Positions 5,117 through 44,263 of a stretch of 64,000 nucleotides of DNA are shown piece by piece. The first letter of the stretch is position 1. Each line of letters opens with the position of its first letter. This DNA comes from Gammaproteobacteria bacterium (GTDB taxonomy: Bacteria > Pseudomonadota > Gammaproteobacteria > UBA4575), in the NCBI GenBank assembly GCA_965247265.1, contig OZ252002.1, positions 1,962,565-2,026,564 on the forward strand, in the 5' to 3' direction. The notes beneath the pieces were generated by a model that searched no databases, was not told the DNA's origin, and was given only the letters and a program-made list of their open reading frames with translations. Position numbers and translations under genes: made by a program.

Positions 5117-5496
5117 TTGCCTCTCATTATTGTTGTGTTTAGCTAACTGCTATCTTGTCGAAGATAGCATACTCGCGATCACTACCCCGTATGCCGGCAA
5201 AAATGGCGCCAACTTTTTTTGCTGCTGGCACCCCAGCCCAGATCTGCGCCGCGAAAGGTGGTCAGAGTTGGTCCTTTCATCTTTAGTTCTTTGAAAATAA
5301 TAAATTGAAATCTGAACACAATCACGAGGCGCTTTGTGAGTCAGTTCAAAAAATATATCGCTCAGCGAACTGGGCGTGTCACAGCGTGACATCGATACGT
5401 CCATTTAGACGTTATTGACGTCGATTATCGTAGATTTTAATGTAACTGTGTTATATATGATTATGTTCTAATTAAATATATATTTGATACTTGCTG

Positions 5497-5534
5497 TTTT
5501 GCAGGCCGCTACATAACCACTCTGCCATCTAGCC
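5497..5534 (-). repeat. partial tRNA-Cys copy (5' half, about 37 nt, 2 mismatches); candidate att-site remnant
   Basis: TTGCAGGCCGCTACATAACCACTCTGCCATCTAGCC matches positions 1344-1380 of the intact tRNA-Cys. Same orientation. Confidence 0.7.
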
Positions 5535-5586
5535 ATATAAATGTTAATTTTTCTTCAGAGCGTATTAACGATCCATAAAGTAAAAA

Positions 5587-5612
5587 AACCTCGAGAAATT
5601 AATCGAGGTTTT
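5587..5612. terminator. bidirectional rho-independent terminator hairpin
   Basis: AAAAAAACCTCGAgaaattaaTCGAGGTTTTAAAAA: 8-bp stem, A-run before and T-run after. Confidence 0.5.
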
Positions 5613-5853
5613 AAAAATTAATACCATCTAAACGTTAGACTTGTCACTGAATTTGCGATTCAATCATTTAAACAGCGCTATTTCAGGAATCTTTCAATTC
5701 TCACCCATTCTGCGTATTTTTATGAATCTAAAGGTGCGCAAATGTACAAAGATTACAGCCACAGCTAGAATCCGTTGTTCCGGCTTTTCTAAAACTAATG
5801 ACAAGTTTTGAATTAAGAGAAAATTAGACTAATTTTCCCTCAAGATGGCTTTG

Positions 5854-6039
5854 CTAGCCAAATATGCTCATAAACTTCCACACGAGGAAGCCAAGAAGAA
5901 TCAATGAAATCACCACATAGGCTTTGACAAAAAGCCAATCTGAAAATGTGAGAGATGAACCACTCGCCACAGTACCGTGGTTAGGTGCCCCAAGCTCTAA
6001 ATTGATAGGTTTTTGATATGATTGAATTACATCATCCAT
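5854..6039 (-). CDS. small membrane protein, hypothetical (61 aa)
   Basis: ORF with a C-terminal TM segment. Confidence 0.3.
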   Translation of the reverse strand: MDDVIQSYQKPINLELGAPNHGTVASGSSLTFSDWLFVKAYVVISLILLGFLVWKFMSIFG

Positions 6040-6553
6040 ACAGGAAATTATCCTAAACTATGTTCTCAACAAATCTAACCTACATCACAAAAATTAAGGA
6101 TTGATGAAATTTTTCTGAATGTAGATTTATTTATTCTTTAAGCGTGTGCAAAGCCGCTTACATAAGCGGTCAATGACCATAAAAGGATAAAAAAGTAGTA
6201 ACCTGCGAATGTAGCGGTAAGTATCAACATCACAAGCAGTAAAAGCGCTTCAAACATAGGTATTTATACAATTATTTTAAACGGTTAGTTATAAATAATC
6301 GTTCAAATGAATGTTATTATAGGAAAATTACAGCGCCCTATGTGTATCTAGGTTCCAGTTAAGCACACATCGCTTAATTCACAGATATATCGCGTGAGTG
6401 GCAATATGAAAATTGAGTTGAATAACAGTGAATAGATTGCGTCAAAGACAATTACGAGACTGCTATATATTAGTGTGGTTTTAGTACCTATGAATTAGGT
6501 GCTATTGAGTTAATTTGGAACACGCGGAATGTCTGTACGTACAAAATATTTAA

Positions 6554-6928
6554 TCATTCTACTTCTACAATATCTGCTTTTAAGCTAGAAACAAATTCAG
6601 CTATTTCATCGCATTCTTGATTTGGAACATTTAATGCCTGCATGGTATCGCCTGCATGACTCATAAAAATTGACCAATCACTTTCACTTATTCCCATGCC
6701 AATATGTGATGTTTTCATATCTCGTCCTGTGTAATACATTGGCCCTCCCGCACTCGCGCATAAATTATCAATAAGCAGCTGCTTCTCTCGTGCTACGCTA
6801 TCATCCCCCCTATTCTGCCAAAACCGCCCAAGTTGTGCGTCTGCTTCTAAACGAGGAAGCAAATCTTCCACAAAATTGATGATTCCTTCATATCCGCCTA
6901 ACCTTTCGTATAGTGATTTATCACTCAT
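6554..6928 (-). CDS. truncated hemoglobin (group I 2-on-2 globin)
   Basis: LYERLGG...GGPMYYTGRDMKTSHIGMGIS matches the trHbN/GlbN family signature. Confidence 0.7.
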   Translation of the reverse strand: MSDKSLYERLGGYEGIINFVEDLLPRLEADAQLGRFWQNRGDDSVAREKQLLIDNLCASAGGPMYYTGRDMKTSHIGMGISESDWSIFMSHAGDTMQALNVPNQECDEIAEFVSSLKADIVEVE

Positions 6929-7055
6929 ATTGATTCCAACTTAATTGTGTGTCACGCCATGATCTTGGCTTAACACAATCAAGATTGCTAGTGAACAGCA
7001 ATAGTAAATAGTAATTTTTGAGGTGAATAATATTTGGGGATTTTTTATTTTCTCA

Positions 7056-28311: not shown

Positions 28312-28388
28312 ATGGAGCGGGAAACCAGGTTCGAACTGGCGACCTCAACCTTGGCAAGGTTGCGCTCTACCAACTGAGCTATTCCCGC
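28312..28388 (-). tRNA. glyW: tRNA-Gly (anticodon GCC)
   Basis: Reverse complement GCGGGAATAGCTCAGTTGGTAGAGCGCAACCTTGCCAAGGTTGAGGTCGCCAGTTCGAACCTGGTTTCCCCGCTCCA resembles E. coli glyW. The 3' acceptor strand has one extra C (77 nt). Confidence 0.85.
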
Positions 28389-36013: not shown

Positions 36014-36137
36014 AGCCTATTTTCACCTTACTACTAATTTATATATAGCTTTCAGTAAACAACATCCTGTGAACCAAATCAAATCCATTCAACATGCAAA
36101 TCAATAATTCCATCTTAAGGTAATTGATGTGATCGTC

Positions 36138-40338: not shown

Positions 40339-41676
40339 TTATCGGTCAAATTGTAATTGTTCGCCATAAAATCCTTCCTTAGTAAATTTTCCATCCTCAT
40401 ATACGATCTTTCCATTTAGAATAGTGGCGCTAATTGAAGATCGAAAAGTAAAATTATTAAAAGGCGACCAACCGCATTTGTATAAAATATTTTCAGGTGT
40501 TACATGGAATGATTTTTCGTGGTCTATTAGTACCAAATCTGCAAAATAATCTTCCCGAATATAGCCTCTATCTACAACGCTAAAGCGTTTTGCAACATTA
40601 TGACTTGTTTTTTCAACAATCTTTTCCATGCTAAAAATATTGTTGTGATAGTGTTCTAAAAGGCTTAATAGGGCATGCTGCACCAAAGGCAATCCAGCAG
40701 GCGCTGTTATATAATTTCCATGTTTTTCTTTCATTAAATGCGGAGCATGATCCGTAGCAATTATATCAATTCGATTTTCATTCACCCCATGTAATAGGCC
40801 CTGCTGATCCTGAAGTGTCTTAATAGCTGGATTACATTTAATTAAAGATCCATGTTCGGCATAATCTGCCGCATTGAAAAACAAATAATGCACACAAACT
40901 TCAGCTGTAATATTCTTATTATCTACCTCGGCACTATCAAAAAGATCTAATTCCTTAGCTGTAGACAAATGTAATACATGCAGCTGGGTTCCATGTTTCT
41001 TTGCAAGCGTTACTGCCTTTAATGAAGAGTTATAACATGCCTGTTCTGAGCGAATTATTGGGTGATATTCGACAGGTATATCATCCCCATATTCTTGCTG
41101 AAATTTATGTAGATTTTCATTAATTAAAACTGAATCTTCGCAGTGCGTAATAATGGGTACAGGTGCATTTTTGAATATCCCTTCTAAAACATCATCATCG
41201 TCTACGAGCATGTTACCTGTAGATGCTCCCATAAACACTTTAATTCCACATGCTAAGTTCTTTGGCACCATTTTCAATATTTCTAAATTGTCATTACTGG
41301 CTCCCATGTAAAATGCATAATTTGCTTGTGCACGCTTCGCTGCAACTTCATATTTTTGTTGCAATAGCTCTAAGGTAAGTGTTGGCGGTTTGACATTTGG
41401 CATGTCCATAAAGCTGGTTATACCACCTGCAATAGCAGCATGAGATTCCGTTGCCATATCTGCTTTATGCGTAAGCCCTGGTTCTCTGAAATGCACTTGG
41501 TCATCAATCATGCCGGGGATCAAGCACTTGCCATTAGCATCCAGAATTTGTTTAGCGGTAACGTGTTGTAAATCATTATCAATCTGCGTAATTCTTTGAT
41601 TAGTTATTAGGATATCTTTATTTACAGTTGTACTTTCATTTACAACTCTTGCATTAGTAATTAGTAGATCATGCAT
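40339..41676 (-). CDS. pyrC: dihydroorotase-like cyclic amidohydrolase (class I, 445 aa)
   Basis: ...CLIPGMIDDQVHFREPG...metal-binding His/Asp pattern. Confidence 0.65.
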   Translation of the reverse strand: MHDLLITNARVVNESTTVNKDILITNQRITQIDNDLQHVTAKQILDANGKCLIPGMIDDQVHFREPGLTHKADMATESHAAIAGGITSFMDMPNVKPPTLTLELLQQKYEVAAKRAQANYAFYMGASNDNLEILKMVPKNLACGIKVFMGASTGNMLVDDDDVLEGIFKNAPVPIITHCEDSVLINENLHKFQQEYGDDIPVEYHPIIRSEQACYNSSLKAVTLAKKHGTQLHVLHLSTAKELDLFDSAEVDNKNITAEVCVHYLFFNAADYAEHGSLIKCNPAIKTLQDQQGLLHGVNENRIDIIATDHAPHLMKEKHGNYITAPAGLPLVQHALLSLLEHYHNNIFSMEKIVEKTSHNVAKRFSVVDRGYIREDYFADLVLIDHEKSFHVTPENILYKCGWSPFNNFTFRSSISATILNGKIVYEDGKFTKEGFYGEQLQFDR

Positions 41677-41872
41677 ATGGATTGTATTTATCTTGACTAA
41701 TTGAAAAATTAAATGTCTAAATTTTAACTGACTGATATTAAGTAGGTTAACTTTTTTATCGCTTAATTACACTCAAAAACACGAAAATAATTAATGTTGT
41801 TTTAATAACCAAAATATGAAACCCTTCACATTACGGTGTTTGAAATTATAGACAGCCTTTGCTTAAAAACAC

Positions 41873-42133
41873 TTGAATGAGTTGGAAACATACTGGAGTG
41901 GAGATAGAACGATGAGTCAGATTGGAATTGACTTGGCATACACAAATGATCGCAGACAATGCATTGATCGACGCGAACGCATAATAAAATCTGAATTTCC
42001 TCTTGTAGATAGTGATGGACGCTTCATTAAAGCCGATCGCAGAAATGCGCCTGATCGCAGGCTTGCCAACATTCAAGTCAAAGAAGTGTCGGTAAATGGG
42101 CGAATCTTTAGTTCATTATTTAGCAACCATTAA
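41873..42133 (+). CDS. small basic protein with duplicated DRR-x3-5-DRR motifs (paralogue 1)
   Basis: ...TNDRRQCIDRRERI...ADRRNAPDRRLANIQV...FSSLF. Start may be at Met-14 (MSQIG...). Confidence 0.45.
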   Translation: MNELETYWSGDRTMSQIGIDLAYTNDRRQCIDRRERIIKSEFPLVDSDGRFIKADRRNAPDRRLANIQVKEVSVNGRIFSSLFSNH

Positions 42134-42359
42134 ACTAAGAAACCATTTGCTGCTTCTCGGTGCGCTCATTTTGTATATACAAAATTATTTAGTTACCAAT
42201 TAGCTATTACTTGTTAATCACAAATATTTACTTAAAAAAATTAAGCATTTCTTCCTGTAATTGTGTGAAGTAGATCACATACATATCGAAGTAAATTTCG
42301 ATACGGTATGCACACAAATATGTTACTTATTATTAGAATAAAAATATCGAAGGAATGAA

Positions 42360-42578
42360 ATGAAAATGATCAATAATGGTGATCGCCGTGGTGAAAATGA
42401 CCGAAGGAACTCAATGCAAGGTGCTCAATTTCCAATTATTACGCGCCATGGTGTTTGTGTGCGTAATGATAGGCGCCGACATCCTGATCGAAGAATTTCA
42501 AAAATAGAAGTAGGTGAAAATAATATTGATGAAGACGCATTTGAGCTTCTCTTTCAAACCTATACCGAAAATCGATAA
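42360..42578 (+). CDS. small basic protein with duplicated DRR-x3-5-DRR motifs (paralogue 2)
   Basis: ...GDRRGENDRRNS...NDRRRHPDRRISKIEV...FELLF. Collinear with paralogue 1. Confidence 0.45.
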   Translation: MKMINNGDRRGENDRRNSMQGAQFPIITRHGVCVRNDRRRHPDRRISKIEVGENNIDEDAFELLFQTYTENR

Positions 42579-42647: not shown

Positions 42648-42845
42648 TCATTCTAAATTTGAAACCAGCCGATATACCGCAATAAGCAACCCAAACCCGA
42701 CATACAGTCCCAGAAGTGAAATAAGCAAAAGCAGCCCCACAGCTGAACTGACTACTTCGGTTCGAACTAAAATAAATACACCAGCCACCAAGCTAGTGAA
42801 TAACGTCATCGTCCCAACAACGATTATAATTTTATTGTGTTTCAT
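42648..42845 (-). CDS. small membrane protein, hypothetical
   Basis: 65 aa with two TM helices. Confidence 0.3.
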   Translation of the reverse strand: MKHNKIIIVVGTMTLFTSLVAGVFILVRTEVVSSAVGLLLLISLLGLYVGFGLLIAVYRLVSNLE

Positions 42846-43027: not shown

Positions 43028-43843
43028 TTACTTGGAAATTGCACACCGAAACCCAATAGATCCATAAATCGATTTCCCACTTACTGGCGGTTTAACGTTA
43101 CGATACGAACTACGTAAGTTCTTTTTATTTTCATCCCAAGAACCCCCTCGCACGATTCTTTGTTTTCCTTTTGCAGGGCCTGCTAAATCGCCTTTTGCAT
43201 AATGGTCTTGAATTGCAGTTTTTGAATACCAATTCATGGTCCATTCTCCTGCGTTTCCGTGCATATCGAAAAGATCAAAATTATTAGGTTCTCTACTCGC
43301 TATTTTCCAAGTGCGGTCTTCGCCACATCCATCTGGTTCGTTTGGAACGGATCCAAACGTGACACCATCATCCAAAATTGCGTGTGTACAATCCACATCT
43401 TGACCCCAAGGGTAGCGAGTAATTGATTCTGCTCTCGCTGCTTTTCCCATTCTGCTTCATACGGCAGTCGCCTACCTTTCCATTCACAATAAGAAAGTGC
43501 CTCATCCCAATCAACGCAATTCACAGGATGATTCACACGCGTTGGCTCACCGACATTACAATACTTATTTCGAAAGTGATCTTTTGGTCGTTTGCATACA
43601 CCTTCAGCCATGCATTCTTCATATTGCGAAACCGTAACCTCATATTTATCAATATTAAAACTCGGCACTATTACGCTTTCACCCCCCCCCTTCTCGTCCT
43701 TCATCTTCCAAGCAGAGATCATCAGCAGGTGAACAACCCATATTGAATTTTCCTTCAGAGATCTTAATAGAACTTGAGTCTGCAATAATAGAACTGCTGT
43801 AGAAAATGAAATATAAAATAGTAAAATTTAATAATTTGCTCAT
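43028..43843 (-). pseudogene. formylglycine-generating-enzyme (FGE-sulfatase/SUMF1) family protein with signal peptide; frameshifts at a G9 tract (43682-43690) and an A-run (about 43442)
   Basis: Three frames: MSKLLNFTILYFIFYSSSIIA...KFNMGCSPADDLCLEDEGREGGG | ...ESVIVPSFNIDKYEVT...NHPVNCVDWDEALSYCEWKGRRLPYEAEWEK | AARAESITRYPWG...MHGNAGEWTMNWY...RIVRGGSWDE. Confidence 0.65.
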
Positions 43844-44263
43844 GCTATGTAAATGTAGTGACCACATGATGATATCCTGCCTTTGAATGAATTTTTTTAT
43901 CTTTAACATAGACAGAAATTAGAAGAATTTGATTGCAAATTATTTTGCTGATCTTTTGCAATTATCTATGTTAATACTTGCTGATTTTTCCATTCTACAG
44001 ACTCTTTAGAAGTTGTATTGTTGACTATAAGCATTGCTGAATGCTTGCCTCAATTTTGAACAACTTACCATCGTACAATTTCCTCCATCCATATTAACGA
44101 CATTCTGCCTCCATTAGTCTCACTGGGCATTTTGCACCTCTTATCCAAGTTTAAACGTACTTTGATACGTAATTGTGAAAGTATAGGTCACAGTTTAGAT
44201 ATCTAAACCAATTTTTGAATTGTCTTAGTACAAGAAATTCTTGTAGAAAAAATTGTGCGTTAA

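Follow-up and report, generated by a model that had tools for sequence, protein, structure and literature searches.

A tandem pair of small proteins with four Asp-Arg-Arg triads, from a conserved, unannotated family that may bind a guanine nucleotide

A 64,000-nt stretch of DNA from an uncultured gammaproteobacterium (the window; assembly GCA_965247265.1, contig OZ252002.1, positions 1,962,565 to 2,026,564) carries two neighbouring open reading frames, ORF A and ORF B, each encoding a small basic protein with four Asp-Arg-Arg (DRR) triads. Comparative analysis showed the two to be ancient tandem paralogues and real, selected, expressed-looking genes. By the criteria of sequence similarity they belong to a genuine, widespread and conserved small-protein family that is new to curated libraries. 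Apparently new here are the unannotated four-DRR family itself, its newly recognised fusions to FHA domains, and CRP-box promoters in this lineage. The function proposed below, binding of a guanine nucleotide and most likely of cyclic di-GMP (c-di-GMP), is tentative.

The gene pair and the four-DRR family

ORF B, the B-type paralogue, spans 42360-42578 on the plus strand (72 aa plus stop), and a Shine-Dalgarno-like AAGGAA read from the sequence lies at 42350-42355, 4 nt before its ATG. ORF A, the A-type paralogue, had been listed as 41873-42133 with a TTG start and 86 aa, and an earlier note on this DNA had taken it from that position. The ATG at 41912 (MSQIGIDL...) fits better, since it coincides with the residues where the ORF A orthologues begin and since a Shine-Dalgarno-like site on the plus strand (GGAGTGGAGA, 41895-41904, read from the sequence, with GGAG/GGAGA) is found 7 nt upstream. 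The true product is thus most likely the 73-aa protein (plus stop) encoded by 41912-42133 on the plus strand.

Both proteins carry the four-DRR module. In ORF A, the triads are DRR at residues 13-15, 19-21 and 42-44 and PDRR at 47-50, in the order NDRRQCIDRR ... FPLVDSDGRFIK ... DRRNAPDRR-LANIQV ... FSSLF, with FPLVDSDGRFIK predicted to form a hairpin at 29-40 and a helix predicted at about 63-70. In ORF B, they are DRR at 8-10, 14-16 and 37-39 and PDRR at 42-45, in the order GDRRGENDRR ... FPIITRHGVCV ... DRRRHPDRR-ISKIEV ... FELLF, with a predicted hairpin (FPIITRHGVCV) at 24-34 and predicted helices at 58-70. BLASTP aligned A with B over 61 residues without gaps (36% identity, E=7e-13), and the N-terminal half of the family profile aligned in register with its C-terminal half (hhalign E=2.7e-5, 16 columns), which bears out the earlier view of two paralogues of the same architecture built on a duplicated DRR motif. 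The motif strings given at that time hold in their overall architecture, except that the second motif is DRR-x2-PDRR and not x3; likewise, the two proteins do share a C-terminal motif, of which the common form is F-x2-L-F and not F-x-[S/E]-LLF, LLF being present in B only. Each protein contains four [DE]RR triads against 0.064 expected per 72 aa (Poisson P ~7e-7), the expectation being taken from the long ORFs of the window. The isoelectric points (pI) are 9.99 (A) and 9.18 (B), and from this composition the DRR repeats might bind nucleic acid or phosphate. No Cys or His is conserved in the A-type, the B-type or the wider family, and the zinc-ribbon-like unit or metal-binding hairpin considered earlier was therefore rejected. 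A twin-arginine translocation (Tat) signal, raised solely by the RR pairs, was also rejected, as no hydrophobic segment was read after RR.

Close orthologues formed 9 clusters of the A-type at 69-100% identity and 9 of the B-type at 63-100%, all from uncultured bacteria. Identity was 62-96% within a type and 32-38% between the types. In codon comparisons, the proportion of synonymous differences (pS) was 0.6-0.85, so that synonymous sites were saturated, against a proportion of nonsynonymous differences (pN) of 0.15-0.26; the ratio of nonsynonymous to synonymous substitution (dN/dS), where estimable, was about 0.1 for both A and B. For ORF A of the closely similar loci L005 and L006, pS was 0.23 and pN 0.00. 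The reading frames are therefore conserved in relatives under purifying selection, as the earlier note had asked for.

A profile built from both types and searched against 1.84 billion proteins gave 337 representative clusters (50% identity) at E≤1e-3 and 30 at E≤1e-10, so that homologues with conserved DRR spacing exist elsewhere by the hundreds. Nearly all of the 337 clusters are 55-115 aa long; the family median is 72 aa, the proteins are mildly basic, and they come from uncultured Gammaproteobacteria-type metagenome-assembled genomes (MAGs) and metagenomes. A second search returned 387 proteins, none functionally named (most were unnamed and the rest called hypothetical protein) and none with a precomputed Pfam domain. 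The signature can be written as [DE]RR-x3-[DE]RR, x7, FP-x2-D-x2-G-x2-V, x2, DRR-x2-P-[DE]RR-[LI]-x-N-I-x-V. In ORF B numbering, the column frequencies are 98 and 99% for R15 and R16, 78% for F24, 97% for P25, 86% for G31, 89, 99 and 99% for D37, R38 and R39, and 83, 78, 95 and 96% for P42, D43, R44 and R45. Further conserved columns are [DE]14, D28, V/I34, L/I46, N48, I49 and V51; [DE]8, R9 and R10 are weaker, and the C-terminal F..LF helix is present in part of the family only.

The earlier impression that no known family is involved was borne out for A and B by every comparison made. Pfam and NCBIfam scans of A, B and 137 relatives gave nothing above noise, and PADLOC (defence) and PHROGs (phage) scans of A and B gave noise only. 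No PDB sequence matched the family profile at E≤10. Fold comparison with Foldseek gave no match, its sole rows being extended ribosomal proteins at E>5, which have no evidential value. Cluster look-ups yielded no names or accessions for the relatives, and a search of the available literature library found no description of a four-DRR module, the papers on CleD emerging solely as a chemical analogy.

AlphaFold2 models, built with 125-137 homologues, had a mean predicted local distance difference test (pLDDT) of 75.6 for A and 77.9 for B and a predicted template modelling score (pTM) of 0.35-0.37. By successive blocks, pLDDT was 51, 68, 84, 94, 70, 76 and 89 in A and 62, 69, 89, 85, 66, 92 and 85 in B. 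Both models showed a confident two-stranded hairpin over F-P...G..V and a C-terminal helix, and the DRR arms were least confident. Because the core is confident, the arms are not and pTM is low, we infer from the models that a small core bears flexible Arg/Asp arms, which may need a ligand or partner to become ordered.

The module also occurs in other architectures. In four representatives (P0042, P0071, P0123 and P0128), it stands on the N-terminal side of an FHA domain (PF00498, E 1e-11 to 1e-13); A and B themselves are free-standing and have no FHA match, and no family member scanned has a Response_reg match. Protein P0055 has two modules in one chain. Tandem gene pairs were found at L003, L005, L006 and L008, the last in another setting, between ExbD/TonB-like and type II secretion genes as read from translations. 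Contig L023 has tandem DRR-FHA genes (5508-6008 and 6118-6940) that adjoin pcnB/folK/panBC; in the second, the FHA gene is preceded by a DRR module in another frame, and this gene is probably frameshifted, the contig being a long-read one of 3x coverage. Since the module recurs in tandem genes, in the duplicated chain of P0055 and in tandem DRR-FHA genes, it seems to work in twos and to be able to couple to a phosphopeptide-binding domain.

Two small genes accompany the DRR gene in particular groups. In a subfamily marked by MYxQRKK[DE]RR, a conserved 88-aa gene (ending ...HLLLVKYDRNCYSSQDVLASIKSHKINAKLVGPV), for which Pfam has no match, directly precedes the DRR gene, at L019:5616-5882, at L028:6520-6786 and upstream of L016:9032-9340, in settings that otherwise differ; it may be a dedicated partner of the DRR gene. 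At L010, L012 and L013, the next gene after the DRR gene is a conserved 107-aa gene that Pfam likewise does not match. No operon partner proved to be conserved over the roughly ten independent contexts.

Promoter regions and genomic setting

The intergenic spacers measure 235 nt before ORF A and 226 nt before ORF B and have 28% G+C, compared with 44.6% for the window. They had been described as long AT-rich leaders; AT-rich they are, and they consist mainly of promoter regions with conserved CRP-type boxes. Upstream of ORF B, a perfect TGTGA-N6-TCACA (TGTGAAGTAGATCACA) lies at 42264-42279, its centre 88.5 nt before the ATG, and is the sole perfect copy in the window. Upstream of ORF A, a box with one mismatch (TATGAAACCCTTCACA) lies at 41815-41830, its centre about 89.5 nt before the ATG, and is kept at one mismatch before the A-type genes of L003, L005 and L006. 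When the two upstream regions are aligned, which needs no gaps, the boxes fall in the same register to their start codons (-89.5 and -88.5). In six orthologous B upstream regions, otherwise 49% identical, TGTGA-N6-TCAC(A/G) is almost the sole invariant block, and within the clade each of the 11 upstream regions that were examined contains a box with no more than one mismatch. The chance expectation is 1.8 boxes with 0-1 mismatch per 64 kb, and the four boxes in the window are by number within the chance range (12/100 shuffles reach 4). The other two, each with one mismatch, are TGTGAACCAAATCAAA at 36068-36083, between the S49 peptidase and rluC-like genes, and TGTGAGTCAGTTCAAA at 5335-5350.

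A -10-like hexamer, GATACG, was placed by inference at 42300-42305 on the plus strand, 20 nt after the box of ORF B. The alignment of orthologous regions showed a conserved block [TA]AGATAC[TG] downstream of the box; the hexamer is GATACT in 4/5 of the orthologous B upstream regions and degenerate in L001, with a spacing of 20-22 nt to the box. Class II CRP promoters have the box centred near -41.5 from the transcription start. Because the hexamer sits 20-22 nt after the box, a start predicted from it would put the box centre near -40.5 to -42.5, which would suggest a class II CRP-like geometry for ORF B. No clear -10 hexamer was identified for ORF A, and its box, being palindromic, could also serve the divergent amidohydrolase gene. 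On these grounds, each gene is probably transcribed from its own CRP-family-dependent promoter, and a cyclic AMP (cAMP)/CRP signal of starvation would then switch on A and B. The regulator could be CRP/Vfr, or else a CRP homologue of the Clp kind that prefers the same site; a tblastn search with Escherichia coli CRP gave no match in the window, an uninformative result as the window is 2% of the 2.76-Mb genome.

Upstream of A and B, no leader RNA family was detected in Rfam, either at the gathering threshold or at E≤10, and the 5' untranslated and 3' regions gave folding z-scores of 0.2-1.8, no gain in stability over shuffled sequences; the leaders are therefore not riboswitch-like, and a structured leader RNA or riboswitch was rejected. 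No convincing intrinsic terminator was seen on the plus strand. The only gathering-level Rfam matches in the window were two tRNA genes, at 1310-1380 and 28316-28388 on the minus strand.

The genes lie in a core-gene setting and not in an island, as proposed earlier: gene order is kept in five related MAG species, and tblastn gave no plasmid or phage matches. The kept order is rluC-like, rne, low-molecular-weight (LMW) phosphatase (LMWPc), amidohydrolase, [A], B, a 65-aa membrane-protein gene and a formylglycine-generating-enzyme-like (FGE) gene. B is present at every orthologous locus; L003, L005 and L006 also carry A, and at L001/L004 and L007 its place is vacant. In the window, Pfam confirmed the neighbours as amidohydrolase (pyrC-like), LMW phosphatase, RNase E/G, RluC-like and S49 peptidase. 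The amidohydrolase gene (40339-41676, minus strand) is divergent from ORF A, and the 65-aa membrane-protein gene (42648-42845, minus strand) is convergent with ORF B. The spacer between the amidohydrolase gene and ORF A holds a second conserved block at 41722-41745 (TAACTnAnTGATATnnAGTAnnTTA, then AAAAACAnG and TGTTGTnTT), which may be the divergent amidohydrolase promoter or the site of another regulator.

A third family copy, at L001:8512-8742 on the minus strand (MAG OZ241890), is divergently oriented, has a CRP-like box with one mismatch upstream (counted among the 11 regions above), and has PVED in place of the last PDRR; it reads as a diverging, degenerate paralogue. Loci L005 and L006 come from one MAG (CBDCUI01, contig_6 and contig_9), in which the region from rne to FGE is found twice with about 17-23% synonymous divergence. 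This doubling probably represents two co-assembled strains, not a true duplication. The FGE-sulfatase gene of the window (43028-43909, minus strand) falls into ORFs that overlap and differ in frame, with Pfam positions 24-120 of FGE-sulfatase in ORF 43300-43785 and 120-254 in ORF 43028-43450, and is in a single frame in L005, L006 and L007. The split is a frameshift, due either to a pseudogene or to an assembly error.

Possible ligands of the module

The reading that we favour, at a probability of roughly 0.35, is by analogy that of an induced-fit binder of a guanine nucleotide, most likely c-di-GMP. The four triads of A and B would act as flexible arms on a small hairpin/helix core and would become ordered around an anionic, guanine-containing ligand, for which intercalated c-di-GMP is most plausible and another nucleotide second messenger possible. 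Recognition would fall to Arg at the Hoogsteen edges and phosphates and to Asp at the Watson-Crick edge. The free-standing proteins would be small receptors, adaptors or buffers, and in the fusions the output or the partner contact would come from the FHA domain. Guanine reading is proposed because a conserved acidic residue precedes every RR pair. Arg and Asp together read guanine in the I-site of GGDEF proteins, with its RxxD c-di-GMP motif (PMC7382256), a chemistry shared by BldD (RxD/RxxD), and above all in the CleD peptide, which is unfolded when free and wraps a c-di-GMP dimer via DRR and [R/K]RxxD (PMC7382256). The arginine-rich region (ARR) of Cle proteins has the consensus of a tandem [Y/F]xGP[D/E][R/K]R (PMC5677366), and the P-[DE]-R-R core common to the Cle ARR is found here as [DE]RR-x2-P[DE]RR in 236 of 282 family sequences.

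The neighbourhoods of distant family members offer a weak hint in the same direction. In three related marine MAGs or contigs, a GGDEF-EAL gene (L010/L012/L013:4465-5785, minus strand) is divergent from the DRR gene at about 216 nt, and c-di-GMP genes lie within about 6 kb at L016 (GGDEF-EAL), L019 (PilZ) and L031 (HD-GYP); these are raw counts without a background rate.

Several observations weigh against c-di-GMP. Six of the approximately ten independent contexts, including the clade of the window, have no c-di-GMP gene nearby, and a regular-expression search of the window found no GGDEF motif and flagged two EALxR candidates. Neither DRR-x11-[RK]RxxD (A and B included) nor [YF]xGP[DE][RK]R occurs in any of the 282 family sequences, CleD residues 140-174 scored only 2.3 bits against the family profile (hmmsearch, filters off), and none of 137 members matched PilZ (PF07238). 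As the defining motifs of CleD fail, it can be said only that the module may work like the Cle ARR, not that it is one. The conserved Asp beside Arg could equally well form internal salt bridges. Finally, CRP boxes are absent upstream of the distant members L008, L010, L016 and L019; control by such boxes thus appears specific to the clade of the window, and CRP regulation therefore says little on the function of the family.

The main rival to the c-di-GMP reading is RNA or ribosome binding. On this explanation, which we consider unlikely, A and B would be small basic proteins of starvation like RMF or Sra, laying their Arg arms on the backbone of rRNA or mRNA and modulating translation or RNA turnover under active cAMP-CRP. 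The pI of 9.2-10.0, the partly disordered and extended models, promoters that look CRP-dependent, as is the promoter of E. coli rmf, and the nearness of rne and rluC in the clade of the window are all consistent with it. The net charge is only +2 to +4, however, and arginine-rich RNA-binding motifs do not usually have an acidic residue before every RR pair. Pfam gives no match to RMF or any ribosomal family, the synteny with rne is found in one clade only, with unrelated neighbours in the others, and the FHA fusions point to signalling.

Those fusions, FHA being a phosphothreonine-peptide binding domain, would also suit a protein-protein adaptor or regulator, in which the core and its Arg-Asp arms engage a partner that is acidic or phosphorylated, for instance a kinase, a component of secretion or motility, or a factor of RNA polymerase, and A and B form a hetero-pair. 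The occurrence of the module in pairs (tandem genes, the double chain and tandem DRR-FHA genes) is in keeping with this possibility, the models, confident in the core yet low in pTM, hint at an obligate partner, and one clade has the conserved 88-aa gene immediately upstream. Against these stand the lack of a conserved partner gene across clades and of similarity to any known adaptor or anti-sigma family, and this alternative, too, is given a low probability.

A small DNA-binding protein, nucleoid-associated or repressor-like, with its Arg pairs on the groove or backbone, is quite improbable: the proteins are basic, small and Arg-rich and a beta-hairpin could in principle enter a groove, but there is no match to a helix-turn-helix, ribbon-helix-helix or other DNA-binding family or fold, the conserved Asp disfavours backbone contact, and besides the CRP boxes no operator-like repeat was noticed beside the genes in the upstream and flank analyses. 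The short length, the absence of annotation in every library and the long AT-rich spacers on either side might raise the suspicion of chance ORFs in AT-rich DNA between genes, or of leader peptides belonging to a regulatory RNA, but this artefact is excluded by conservation (dN/dS ~0.1 with saturated synonymous sites and hundreds of homologues with invariant residues), with good Shine-Dalgarno sites before both genes and no Rfam family or RNA structure more stable than shuffles.

Should the module bind c-di-GMP or a messenger akin to it, this would be a new minimal type of receptor, which would explain the DRR-FHA fusions and provide a natural counterpart to engineered c-di-GMP-sequestering peptides. 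A more doubtful extension of the analogy is a new class of free-standing second-messenger receptor or buffer, likely for oligomeric c-di-GMP, that folds on binding, with A and B as a node of cross-talk from cAMP to c-di-GMP. The module would then be unrelated in sequence to PilZ, the I-site, MshEN and the Cle ARR and would elsewhere gate an FHA phosphopeptide-binding domain, and the signalling of cAMP and of c-di-GMP would, through the conserved CRP boxes, be connected in an uncultured lineage of gammaproteobacteria. If RNA or the ribosome is bound instead, the proteins would be a new starvation factor. Small proteins are under-annotated, and here a family of hundreds of clusters with an unusually sharp signature stands outside Pfam, NCBIfam and PDB; either way, the four-DRR family merits a name and a profile.

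Comparison with known systems

The closest likeness is to the ARR of the CheY-like Cle proteins of Caulobacter, represented by the CleD peptide CSP1 (PDB 6SFT); that class is marked by the binding of two c-di-GMP per chain at nanomolar to micromolar Kd, with folding on binding. In both, a short linear module carries repeated D-R-R / P-[DE]-[RK]-R beside a small beta-hairpin. CSP1 is unstructured alone and transferable between carrier proteins, and the Asp and Arg of its triads contact the c-di-GMP dimer (PMC5677366, PMC7382256). There is no homology, however, as seen from the 2.3 bits and from the lack of a PDB match at E≤10, 6SFT included. The family has DRR-x3-DRR twice, about 20 residues apart, instead of DRR-x11-[RK]RxxD; it has neither G-P nor a conserved stacking Tyr, its invariant aromatic residue being the Phe of F-P. 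Its module is free-standing or N-terminal to FHA, whereas the Cle ARR is C-terminal to a receiver domain, and its sources are uncultured Gammaproteobacteria-type MAGs and metagenomes, whereas Cle proteins belong to Alphaproteobacteria. Membership in the Cle ARR was rejected on the absence of both motifs (0/282 each), the low score and the missing receiver domain.

PilZ domains (PF07238) likewise have an Arg-rich N-terminal arm followed by a D..G beta element, are often small single-domain proteins and are sometimes fused to output domains. RRxxxR, however, occurs in only 77 of the 282 family sequences, and in B via the third Arg only. The D-S-x-G of the family comes about 12 residues after the arm, compared with 20-30 for the [DN]xSxxG of PilZ, and its 45-70 residues are too few for a six-stranded barrel, with no fold match. 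PilZ membership was rejected, given unfit motifs and length and no PF07238 match among the 137 members.

The C-terminal domain of BldD and the GGDEF I-site (RxD-x8-RxxD; RxxD) share with the family paired Arg and Asp in short motifs, and the ligand of BldD, an oligomer, is surrounded by several motifs that act together. The family differs in its R-x3-D spacing and its fold context, and no homology was detected.

RMF and other starvation-induced small basic proteins differ from the family in sequence, neither Pfam nor NCBIfam giving a match to RMF for A, B or the 137 relatives. They resemble A and B in size, in basic charge and in a probable cAMP-CRP-dependent promoter, and the features that set the four-DRR family apart from them are the Asp kept in every triad and the fusions to FHA.

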